Source of the DNA: Escherichia coli
GTDB taxonomy: Bacteria; Pseudomonadota; Gammaproteobacteria; Enterobacterales; Enterobacteriaceae
Assembly (NCBI RefSeq): GCF_030013595.1
Contig: NZ_CP122768.1
Reading direction: 5' to 3' (one strand)
Length of the DNA: 64,000 nucleotides
Part shown: positions 55,457-59,471 of the stretch, piece by piece
How positions within the stretch are numbered: the first letter of the stretch is position 1
Layout: the number at the start of each line of letters is the position of its first letter
Made by a program: the position numbers and the translations under genes
The notes under the pieces: generated by a model
Database searches by the model: none
What the model was told of the DNA's origin: nothing
Seen by the model: the letters and a program-made list of their open reading frames with translations, nothing else

Positions 55457-55470
55457 TCATCATTCCCCCA

Positions 55471-55498
55471 ATGGCTGGCTAATTGTCAGCCATTTTTT
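55471..55498 (+). terminator. Rho-independent terminator after yiaY
   Basis: atggctggctaattgtcagccat followed by ttttt. Confidence 0.6.
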
Positions 55499-55656
55499 AA
55501 ACTATCTCAAAATTTGCGATTTTTGAGAGAGTTTTAGTTATCTCTGTAGTCCTTGCCCGTAAATTCGTGATAGCCGTCGTAAAGCTGTTACCGACTGGCG
55601 AAGATTTCGCCAGTCACGTCTACCCTTGTTATACCTCACACCGCAAGGAGACGATC

Positions 55657-57195: not shown

Positions 57196-57201
57196 TGTGA
57201 A

Positions 57202-57237
57202 AGGCAGGCAACGTTAATAGTTGTCTGCCTTTGTTTT
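57202..57237. terminator. Bidirectional hairpin terminator between aldB and the convergent nuclease-like gene
   Basis: aggcaggcaacgttaatagttgtctgcct followed by ttgtttt. Confidence 0.6.
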
Positions 57238-57760
57238 AGTTGTATAAAGCGGCAGTCGCTTTTAACTCATCGCTGAAAGAATAAATATCATCGAGAGATT
57301 CAATAGGATGGCGGGTTTCGTTTTTCTCTAAGTCAAATAAACCAATATATTTTTGATTTCGATTGAAATGTAATCTACAGAGTGGCTTTCGATTATTGTC
57401 ATCTACAAGTATACCAAAATAGCTTTTTGTATCTCTGTGGACTATTCGTGGTGCATCAAGCACTACGCGAACTATAGCTTTAACAATATGAAATCCTTCA
57501 AGTTCCTCCATAGTAGTAGCAATATCGGTTTCTTCTTTATTAATACATTCTACTTCTTCATTGTGTGAATTCGAATCAATTACAGATAATGACCCACCAC
57601 CTATTGCCGATTTCAATCTTTCGTTTATTTGAGAGTTAATATATTGATTGGCAGCTTTCTTTGTTAATTTTGCAAACGTATCTTTTACCTTTTGTGTTAA
57701 CATACCTTCATAAATTCTTGCTGCAAAGAATTTTACAAAATCCTCTTCAGGATTATTCAT
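57236..57760 (-). CDS. Uncharacterized 174-aa ORF, in frame with and 18 nt downstream of the HsdR_N-like ORF (likely its C-terminal half)
   Basis: Same frame as 57779..58315 with one TAA (57779..57781) between: ...GELKYVSLI*KVLHAQMNNPEEDF...; no recognisable RBS before its ATG. Confidence 0.55.
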   Translation of the reverse strand: MNNPEEDFVKFFAARIYEGMLTQKVKDTFAKLTKKAANQYINSQINERLKSAIGGGSLSVIDSNSHNEEVECINKEETDIATTMEELEGFHIVKAIVRVVLDAPRIVHRDTKSYFGILVDDNNRKPLCRLHFNRNQKYIGLFDLEKNETRHPIESLDDIYSFSDELKATAALYN

Positions 57761-57778
57761 TTGTGCATGGAGAACTTT

Positions 57779-58315
57779 TTAAATTAAACTAACATATTTT
57801 AATTCACCTGCAGCATTAATTATTGATTCCAAATCAAATGCTGATTTAGTAAGCTTCTTTATCTCGGGAACAACTGTTTCATCTAAGTCAAGTAGATCTA
57901 TCTCAAGAAATGGTTTTTCATCCATTTTATTAGGTGCTTCTAAATCAGTAAAAAATTTATAAACTTGTTCATTGGTTAGAATAGATATTCTTGCATTTGT
58001 TACATGAAAGTATCGAAAAAGCTGTGAAGCATGATTTATATTTAGAGGATCGCCAATTTTTTTGCATTCAATGAGAATCTGAACCTCGCTATTTTTTAAG
58101 ATTGCATAGTCAATCTTTTCACCTTTCTTCGTTCCAATATCGCATACAAACTCTGGGATAACTTCGGTAGGATCAAAGACATCATAACCTAACACATTGT
58201 TAATAAACGGCATTACGAAAGCATTTTTGGTAGCTTCCTCCGTTTCAATGACTCCGGCTTGTTGTTTTATTTTTGCGGATAATGAATTCAGCTTATCTAT
58301 AAACTCCATAGACAT
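57779..58315 (-). CDS. PD-(D/E)xK nuclease-fold protein resembling the N-terminal domain of type I restriction R subunits (HsdR_N-like), N-terminal ORF of 178 aa
   Basis: EEATKNAFVMPFINNVLGYDVFDPTEVIPEF...GEKIDYAIL...VQILIECKKIG (D...E-x-K) ...QLFRYF; strong RBS aaggag 5 nt upstream of ATG; AT-rich. Confidence 0.65.
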   Translation of the reverse strand: MSMEFIDKLNSLSAKIKQQAGVIETEEATKNAFVMPFINNVLGYDVFDPTEVIPEFVCDIGTKKGEKIDYAILKNSEVQILIECKKIGDPLNINHASQLFRYFHVTNARISILTNEQVYKFFTDLEAPNKMDEKPFLEIDLLDLDETVVPEIKKLTKSAFDLESIINAAGELKYVSLI

Positions 58316-58787
58316 TATAACTCCTTATATATATTTAATAAAAATGCGTTTTATAAAAATATAGAAAATATTTATATATTAACGCTTTATCATTGGTCAT
58401 AGTTAATGTATAACACACAAAAAATAATGTTTGCACATTGTAAATACAATGGTGAAACAAACTTGATATTTATCAAGAAAATAAAACAATGTCTTTTATT
58501 GGTTGTTTTAAACGTTCAATGAATACGAGTTGGAGCTATAGCAAGACTAGCTTCGATATCGCATGGATAATCTAATACAGATTTTTTAACACCTAATACT
58601 ATGAGTTATATGTAAATTGCGAGCATCCTCGCATCTTTTCAACAAGTTACTGCACACCGTTATTCTCCTTCCGAGCGGCATTCCTGAGTCAACTTTATCC
58701 CCCTGACGGCCCATATAAATCGCGCTATCGTGATTGTTATCGCTAATTGTGTGTGTATCGTGTGTATAATCATGGAAGGGCAGGGAT

Positions 58788-58973
58788 GTGAAAAGTGCAG
58801 ACGTGATCGCCATCCTGAAGCAGCATGGCTGGGAACATATTCGAACCCGTGGCAGTCATCATCAGTTCCGCCACCCTGTTCATCCGGGTCTGGTGACGGT
58901 TCCGCACCCTAAAAAAGATATTAAGCCCGGTACGCTGGCGCAAATTGGGCGTCAGGCTGGTTTAACATTTTAA
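58788..58973 (+). CDS. hicA: HicA-family mRNA interferase toxin
   Basis: 61 aa from GTG: (M)KSADVIAILKQHGWEHIRTRGSHHQFRHPVHPGLVTVPHPKKDIKPGTLAQIGRQAGL; candidate -10 tataat at 58764..58769. Confidence 0.85.
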   Translation: MKSADVIAILKQHGWEHIRTRGSHHQFRHPVHPGLVTVPHPKKDIKPGTLAQIGRQAGLTF

Positions 58974-58989
58974 AATTTCAGGAGGCAAT

Positions 58990-59400
58990 ATGTTTTATCC
59001 CGCCTATATCCACAGTGATCCTGACGGCAGTGCCAGCGGTTTTTTCCCTGATGTTCCAGGCTGTTATTTTGCTGGTGATACGCTGGACAACGCTTTCCAG
59101 GATGCGCGAAGTGCACTTGTCGCGCACTTCGAAACCTTATGCGAGATGAATGAAGAGTTGCCGCTTCCAGGCTCTGTGGAAACACATCTGGTCCAGCGTG
59201 CGCAGGACTTTATTGGCGGGCAATGGTTGCTGGTGGATATCAATATGAATCAGTTCGAAGGTCGGGCTGAACGTATCAATATTACGATGCCAAAAAGATT
59301 ACTGAACAAGATTGATACCTACGTGCGCAATAACCCAGACTATGCCAACAGAAGTGCGTTTCTGGCGGAAGCTGCCCGGCGTGTATTGCCGGGCGTTTAA
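58990..59400 (+). CDS. hicB: HicB-family antitoxin with C-terminal ribbon-helix-helix domain
   Basis: 136 aa; MFYPAYIHSDPDGSASGFFPDVPGCYFAGDTLDNAFQDARSALVAHFE plus C-terminal RINITMPKRLLNKIDTYV; 16 bp after hicA. Confidence 0.85.
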   Translation: MFYPAYIHSDPDGSASGFFPDVPGCYFAGDTLDNAFQDARSALVAHFETLCEMNEELPLPGSVETHLVQRAQDFIGGQWLLVDINMNQFEGRAERINITMPKRLLNKIDTYVRNNPDYANRSAFLAEAARRVLPGV

Positions 59401-59471
59401 TCTCGCGTTTCGATGGTTGGCGGGCAACCGCACCGATATGTTGATACTGATAAGACGCGTTAAGCGTCGCA

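Follow-up and report, generated by a model that had tools for sequence, protein, structure and literature searches.

A nonsense-inactivated solitary HsdR_N-type nuclease gene in a low-GC cassette beside hicAB in Escherichia coli, and the prophage-associated family to which it belongs

We analyzed a 64,000-nucleotide stretch of Escherichia coli DNA (NCBI RefSeq assembly GCF_030013595.1, contig NZ_CP122768.1; hereafter the window), focusing on the interval between aldB and the toxin-antitoxin genes hicA and hicB, which holds an interrupted nuclease gene (Table 1). Two minus-strand open reading frames (ORFs) share a frame here and are separated only by a TAA codon (57781–57779) and six further codons. 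The upstream ORF has a Shine-Dalgarno sequence ahead of its ATG at 58315; reading the minus strand, none is found ahead of the second ATG (57760). GC content is 24–36% in the block from 57.2 to 58.7 kb and 49% in the window. The initial annotation of the window had pointed to the split ORFs, to the strong ribosome-binding site on the first ORF only and to the low GC content, and the sequence bears out all three. An Rfam search of the locus gave a chance-level match only. We name no promoter, because sigma-70-like sites were scarcer in a scan of the sequence than after shuffling.

Table 1. Features of the aldB–hicB interval (window coordinates) and domains of the read-through nuclease (residues of the 359-residue protein).
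Feature	Position	Strand	Basis or remark
Pseudogene of 359-aa solitary HsdR-N-type nuclease	57236..58315	minus	intact alleles WP_000061477.1 / WP_000061475.1
Upstream ORF, 178 aa	57779..58315	minus	ORF list
Downstream ORF, 174 aa	57236..57760	minus	ORF list
Shine-Dalgarno AAGGAG	58321..58326	minus	six bases 5' of ATG at 58315; read from the sequence
Premature stop, Lys179 to stop (AAA to TAA)	57779..57781	minus	A to T at 57781, first A of an A6 run
Gly116 to Glu (codon 116, GGA to GAA)	57968..57970	minus	window base 57969; in T-N-G motif
Low-GC single-gene cassette, ~1.41 kb	57199..58611		terminator hairpin, gene and ~300 bp of upstream DNA (24% GC)
Terminator-like hairpin, 13-bp stem then T-run	57200..57232	plus	between the convergent aldB and nuclease genes, inside the cassette
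Spacer, nuclease ORF to hicA	58316..58787		472 bp
hicAB upstream region	58612..58787	plus	common to genomes without the nuclease cassette
hicA toxin gene, 61 aa, GTG start	58788..58973	plus	PF07927 HicA_toxin, PHROG, PDB
hicB antitoxin gene, 136 aa	58990..59400	plus	PF15919 HicB_lk_antitox, PHROG, PDB
Nuclease domain	residues 1–160		AlphaFold model
Helical connector	residues 162–238		AlphaFold model
Disordered linker	residues 244–263		AlphaFold model
Compact alpha-beta5-alpha domain, family-specific	residues 269–358		AlphaFold model

The two ORFs are a single 359-codon gene that has been inactivated by a nonsense mutation in this strain. The two-ORF signal is not a chance one, since the read-through product fits the 357-position profile of PHROG 4225 ('endonuclease') end to end (E = 3e-130, residues 3–356 against profile positions 2–352). 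We compared the locus with 5426 complete E. coli genomes, using positions 57196–58790 as the megablast query. The whole block was found in 188 genomes, in every case on the chromosome, and its hicA-proximal end alone in 317 others. The best match (L001) is 99.9% identical, and the two bases of 1595 at which the window differs from it both lie in the nuclease gene. One difference creates the stop (K179*); the other (G116E) replaces a glycine that is invariant in an alignment of 75 diverse homologues. A search across E. coli genomes for an uninterrupted homologue found one at this very position: in L001 and in a second genome, L002, RefSeq annotates a single 1080-bp coding sequence named 'type I restriction endonuclease' (WP_000061477.1 and WP_000061475.1, respectively). 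With AAA in place of TAA in the nearest genome and single ORFs in the homologues, the initial proposal of a roughly 359-residue nuclease-domain gene killed by a nonsense codon stands.

A 71-base probe within the nuclease gene detects 189 carriers among the complete genomes (3.5%), in agreement with the accessory character first ascribed to the block. Centered on the stop, the 71-base probe has exactly one mismatch in all 189 carriers, so the TAA occurs in none of them, and all carry the gene intact. In the alternative initially offered, the split would be functional, with a nuclease subunit translationally coupled to a C-terminal subunit. Only 18 bases separate the stop from the next ATG, and the first ORF retains the whole nuclease domain, features that would suit such an arrangement. 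But single ORFs encode the 131 full-length proteins (340–395 aa) among the 150 best diverse representatives of the family as well as the Enterobacteriaceae homologues and the phage copies; the second ATG lacks a Shine-Dalgarno sequence; the stop is missing from every complete-genome carrier; and the same allele has G116E at an invariant residue. We consider a functional split very improbable and no longer entertain the two-gene unit. A sequencing or assembly error would also account for a stop that arises from one changed base at the border of an A6 run and is absent from complete genomes. However, the exact 178-residue product, G116E included, is recorded on at least 15 contigs from other sequencing runs, one of which is common to at least 20 samples, and an allele with K179* but without G116E exists (L101). 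K179* is thus not a read error, because the truncated product recurs on contigs from independent runs, and we give an artifact hardly any credence. The L101 allele also suggests that G116E arose after K179*.

Nonsense inactivation of this gene has not been a single event in the species. Further independent knock-outs in E. coli are K134*, a one-base deletion at nucleotide 418 of the gene (delG418, an allele not found among the complete E. coli genomes) and an added A in the A6 run at nucleotides 529–534, which brings the independent loss-of-function alleles to at least four. The A6 run (codons 177–179; window 57776–57781, minus strand) has itself been struck twice independently, by the A-to-T change of K179* and by the +A frameshift in L105, and is perhaps a minor hot spot of mutation. 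Between the intact alleles of L001 and L002, six codon differences are synonymous and one is non-synonymous, a ratio by which the intact alleles look constrained; the exact intact protein is found on at least 1000 contigs. Two of five single-nucleotide polymorphisms in 12.8 kb lie in the nuclease gene (p ~0.06 by our own binomial estimate), which is no more than suggestive of selection for inactivation. The product of the present strain, cut after the nuclease domain and carrying G116E, would be expected to have no function.

The position of the gene became clear when the locus was aligned with three genomes (L003–L005) in which hicAB is present and the nuclease missing; this alignment places the edges of the inserted segment to within ~5 bp. 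The cassette stands where nuclease-free genomes have a ~110-bp spacer with a palindrome resembling repetitive extragenic palindromic (REP) elements; in L003–L005 this replaced spacer lies between aldB and hicA at ~5900–6010, and its REP-like palindrome reads GCCTGATGCGACG... The 472-bp spacer between the nuclease gene and hicA has the length initially given, but the alignment resolves it into two parts: it is composite, because ~300 bp belong to the cassette and ~170–175 bp are also present in cassette-free genomes. Just within the shared sequence 5' of hicA, a short GC-rich hairpin is followed by a T-run (58618–58633, plus strand); this hairpin may be the aldB terminator in cassette-free genomes. 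About 316 of 505 complete genomes have hicAB here without the nuclease. Since hicAB and its upstream DNA persist in cassette-free genomes, hicAB is older at the locus and independent of the nuclease, and by the alignment the nuclease gene came in as a 1.4-kb low-GC cassette between aldB and a pre-existing hicAB.

The identification of the neighboring genes as a hicA–hicB pair of the ribbon-helix-helix type agrees with Pfam, PHROG and PDB structure matches. The two genes match PHROG 353 and 497 (toxin and HicB-like), with the Pfam matches made on identical loci; HicA aligns over its full length to solved structures (4c26/6g26, E = 2e-16), as does HicB, C-terminal segment included (6g1n/4p78, E = 3e-25). 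In HicB, the last 40 residues match the C-terminal part of HicB proteins of known structure, a segment that we take to be their ribbon-helix-helix DNA-binding domain. Compared with the type II HicAB systems of B. pseudomallei (6g26) and Y. pestis (HicA3B3; 4p78), the window pair is an ordinary member.

The surrounding region varies in gene content. A Fic-family gene lies between yiaY and aldB in L002 (3059–4354) and in L102–L104, one intergenic gap from the site of the nuclease cassette; it is absent from the window (55457–55566). The selB–aldB–hicAB stretch seems to collect small cargo genes. On the other side, in the window (59400–59480) and in L001, hicB is followed directly by GH127-MFS-AraC genes; in L003 (6783–10580), yiaW-yiaV-yiaU-yiaT and a small hypothetical gene still separate hicB from GH127. 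The region thus exists in three or more versions that differ in gene content.

The read-through protein matches Pfam HSDR_N and HSDR_N_2 over residues 26–129, matches shared by all 75 diverse relatives scanned. Neither in the protein nor in these 75 relatives does the C-terminal half match a Pfam family, an NCBIfam search returned no family, and a PDB sequence search with the nuclease found nothing. The profile searches place the read-through in HSDR_N/HSDR_N_2 and PHROG 4225, in keeping with the restriction-enzyme-like core first noticed in the upstream ORF. In an all-against-library comparison, relatives fall into 5266 clusters (50% identity) when the limit is E ≤ 1e-3 and into 1210 when it is E ≤ 1e-30. 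Nearly all are 340–390 residues long and align end to end. The family extends over many bacterial phyla, with 40–79% identity. Invariant in the 75-member alignment are E55, D69, E83, L99, T114 and G116, and nearly invariant are K85, Q98, R101 and Y102; these residues make up a complete catalytic core, with E...D...ExK (E83-x-K85) and the QxxxY helix motif (Q98xxxY102) of RecB/HsdR-type nucleases. The AlphaFold model (predicted local distance difference test score, 92) has four segments (Table 1). A Foldseek search with its C-terminal domain against AFDB50 returned only the family itself ('Prophage Lp2 protein 6', 'restriction endonuclease').

With the N-terminal nuclease domain of type I HsdR (3h1t; EcoR124I, 2w00) the family shares the PD-(D/E)xK HSDR_N fold unit, but it is one third the size and has neither the translocase nor HsdM/HsdS partners. 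Pfam scans of the protein and of the 75 relatives found no superfamily 2 translocase or helicase (ResIII or DEAD), and no methylase or specificity gene occurs among the annotated neighbors in E. coli, Enterobacter, Arthrobacter, Vibrio or Denitromonas. Taken at face value, the RefSeq product name and the HSDR_N matches would point to a type I restriction-modification system, of which the gene would encode the restriction subunit. The match is confined to a ~130-residue nuclease domain within a 359-residue protein, however, there is no helicase or translocase domain, and no hsdM or hsdS lies nearby in the 80 species described below, so that the architecture is not that of a type I enzyme, and we see next to no chance of such an assignment being correct. 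'Type I restriction endonuclease' is a domain-level label, and misleading.

Type IIG/IIL enzymes (BpuSI, 3s1s; DrdV, 7lo5; the MmeI family) offer a closer architectural parallel in that a nuclease domain is followed by a helical connector, and the family connector resembles the one that joins nuclease to methylase in type IIG. In contrast to those enzymes, the family lacks the methyltransferase and target-recognition domains (no methylase matched by Pfam in the protein or the 75 relatives) and has the small alpha-beta5-alpha domain after the connector. Type IV enzymes (Mrr-, MspJI- and DpnI-like fusions of reader and nuclease) are, like the family, solitary nucleases without a cognate methylase; the likeness extends to carriage by prophages and to the combination of a nuclease with a separate small domain. 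One relative has a RAMA domain, a predicted N6-methyladenine (m6A) reader.

That relative came from a survey of fusions among the 150 best diverse representatives. P0126 has the C-terminal RAMA domain (Pfam, 8e-14). Three others have an N-terminal TerD domain (P0123 by Pfam, 7.7e-26; P0220 and P0243 judged from their sequences). P0122, P0144 and P0192 have a common C-terminal extension, for which the best match is a weak one to SeqA-C in P0144 (1.6e-3); in P0122 it matches no Pfam family. P0168 ends in a Cys-rich tail that is zinc-ribbon-like by eye. The definition of RAMA (PMC4738411) describes a domain that occurs in fusions with restriction nucleases and with adenine methylases and is predicted to be an m6A reader, a role still unproven (PMC11037411).

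The nuclease sits in prophage lysogeny modules. Phages of Streptococcus, Corynebacterium, Fusobacterium, Enterococcus and Terrisporobacter have it between the integrase and a CI-type repressor that is often accompanied by an ImmA protease, co-oriented with these genes; Acetoanaerobium and Clostridium phages have it just downstream of repressor or helix-turn-helix regulator genes, again co-oriented; and the layout of Lacticaseibacillus phage P7.1 is alike, though all its genes are 'hypothetical'. A cI-like, ImmA-like or integrase gene is in the flank of 57 of 80 IMG/VR loci, typically directly adjacent and usually on the same strand, a rough count made with hidden Markov models built from annotated phage genes. 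The RecT/exonuclease replication and recombination module of the phages stands apart from the nuclease. In phage lambda, rexAB lies next to cI, and mycobacteriophages carry repressor-adjacent exclusion genes. Like such lysogeny-module defense genes, the nuclease of many unrelated temperate phages stands between or next to repressor/ImmA and integrase, in their orientation; it differs from rexAB and the mycobacteriophage genes in having no sequence or fold relation to them, and its mechanism would be direct DNA cleavage.

For genomic context we used one locus from each of 80 species (Pseudomonas, Aeromonas, Vibrio, Asticcacaulis and many Actinobacteria; 52–79% identity). No neighbor family recurs across the 80 species beyond local synteny. 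In the Pfam-annotated neighborhoods of Enterobacter, Arthrobacter, Vibrio and Denitromonas, the nuclease is solitary amid ordinary metabolic genes, without hicAB, and the Enterobacter copies are again near aldB/yiaU/yiaT. The GC content of the gene is 7–20 points under that of its flanks in chromosomal loci across phyla and ~2–12 points under in phage loci. Look-ups of the representatives of the 50% clusters led to short metagenome contigs with no usable context. The nuclease gene is solitary and horizontally mobile.

These contexts decide how the nuclease relates to hicAB, which the initial annotation had treated as one module. A single defense unit, with the nuclease controlled or assisted by the toxin-antitoxin pair, would explain their adjacent and divergent placement in the window, and has some echo elsewhere: HicB is within 6 kb of the nuclease in 5 of the 80 genome loci, HicA/HicB in 4 of the 80 viral loci, and in Porphyromonas phages hicA, hicB and the nuclease stand in a row, with the pair directly upstream. 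Four of the five genome cases, however, belong to a single syntenic group in Pseudomonas; over 90% of nuclease loci lack a nearby HicAB and any conserved neighbor; and at the E. coli locus hicAB stands alone in most genomes that have it, the nuclease having arrived separately, in a cassette that brought its own upstream DNA. Both are typical cargo of prophages and hot spots, which is enough for occasional adjacency. With hicAB alone in ~316 genomes and the nuclease alone in other genera, the single-module view fails at this locus, and a joint defense unit is improbable for the family. The adjacency elsewhere shows two sorts of cargo that have repeatedly come to lie together rather than partners in a conserved pair.

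What the intact enzyme does has to be argued from sequence and context. On balance we favor, with reserve, the reading that the family is a restriction-like immunity nuclease carried in lysogens and chromosomal cassettes, with the C-terminal domain serving recognition or gating. Its prophage location makes a role in phage defense plausible. Expression would be constitutive, driven in prophage copies from the repressor/lysogeny operon, and the nuclease would cut incoming phage DNA or other foreign DNA; the C-terminal domain, supplemented in rare relatives by a RAMA-type domain, would supply recognition of the target or of non-self. The sub-model we prefer is a type-IV-like restriction enzyme dependent on a modification or another feature of the DNA, which seems somewhat more likely than an abortive nuclease triggered by infection. 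That the gene has been knocked out several times independently in E. coli agrees with an accessory nuclease that is dispensable or carries a cost.

Several observations weigh against an immune role. The chromosomal copies are not in obvious defense islands, and the near-ubiquity of the gene in Enterobacter at one syntenic site could fit a host function. Among the PADLOC-DB v2.0.0 profiles (including Shedu and the PD-T4/T7/Lambda series) no significant full-length match was found; the only hit was a domain-level match to type IIG (2.7e-7), limited to positions 61–217 of a 1011-position profile, and a match to PDC-S26 was not significant. Among the 150 best representatives there is just 1 clear RAMA fusion, and most of the invariant residues E271, D295, D305 and R314 in the C-terminal domain are acidic, an uncommon trait in a surface that binds DNA. 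No functional study of a family member, and no experiment on one, turned up in searches of the literature; one Campylobacter paper mentions such a gene in a phage-resistant strain without testing it. The family may correspond to COG4748, which appears among the restriction nucleases in PMC8649781.

The chief competitor is a non-immune role in DNA processing for the host or the prophage, such as recombination, repair, resolution of replication intermediates, or prophage maintenance or induction. It would sit well with the housekeeping neighbors and lack of nearby defense genes in several chromosomes, with the one conserved aldB/yiaT site in many Enterobacter genomes, with very high conservation across phyla (52–57% identity between E. 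coli and Actinobacteria) and with a fold class that also takes in resolvases and repair nucleases. It fits poorly with a gene that is accessory in E. coli and repeatedly knocked out there, that has a lower GC content than the DNA around it, as transferred genes do, above all on chromosomes, whose phage copies lie in the lysogeny operon rather than in the replication/recombination module, and whose rare relatives bear restriction-associated RAMA domains. We regard a processing role as doubtful, though worth keeping in view. Within the immune reading, a bolder version is tentative: that this is an undescribed, widespread single-protein immunity nuclease whose C-terminal sensor or gate is new in kind, and whose truncated product is deregulated and harmful. 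The alpha-beta5-alpha domain would then read DNA modification or another non-self cue, and the second change of the K179* allele, G116E in the nuclease core, would have followed because the truncated product was harmful.

Elsewhere in the window, a few strain differences were seen in comparison with its closest complete genome (L194, strain HCP5S3_I2). An IS200/IS605 tnpA lies between rpmG and mutM in L194 (4697–5155) and is absent from the window (~5740); the BLAST blocks of the two jump by ~680 bp at rpmG–mutM. A large YadA-like adhesin gene (L194 36935–42172), in which the window and L194 differ more than elsewhere, contains internal repeats of ~200–600 bp with 79–93% identity (window ~40068–40788). 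In the waa cluster of L194 (14079–15107), the annotation gives a family-8 glycosyltransferase gene for the lipopolysaccharide core as a pseudogene, interrupted by a stop.

The window itself is mundane, a recently killed accessory gene beside an unrelated toxin-antitoxin pair, and the direct interest of the locus is modest because the copy here is dead. The natural E. coli knock-outs and the near-identical intact strains provide ready-made isogenic comparisons. The family is a compact one of more than 5000 clusters at 50% identity that is missing from the defense catalogue searched (PADLOC-DB v2.0.0), and is a reasonable candidate for experimental testing. If it is indeed an immunity nuclease, it would represent a common single-gene prophage defense with some means of discriminating self from non-self.

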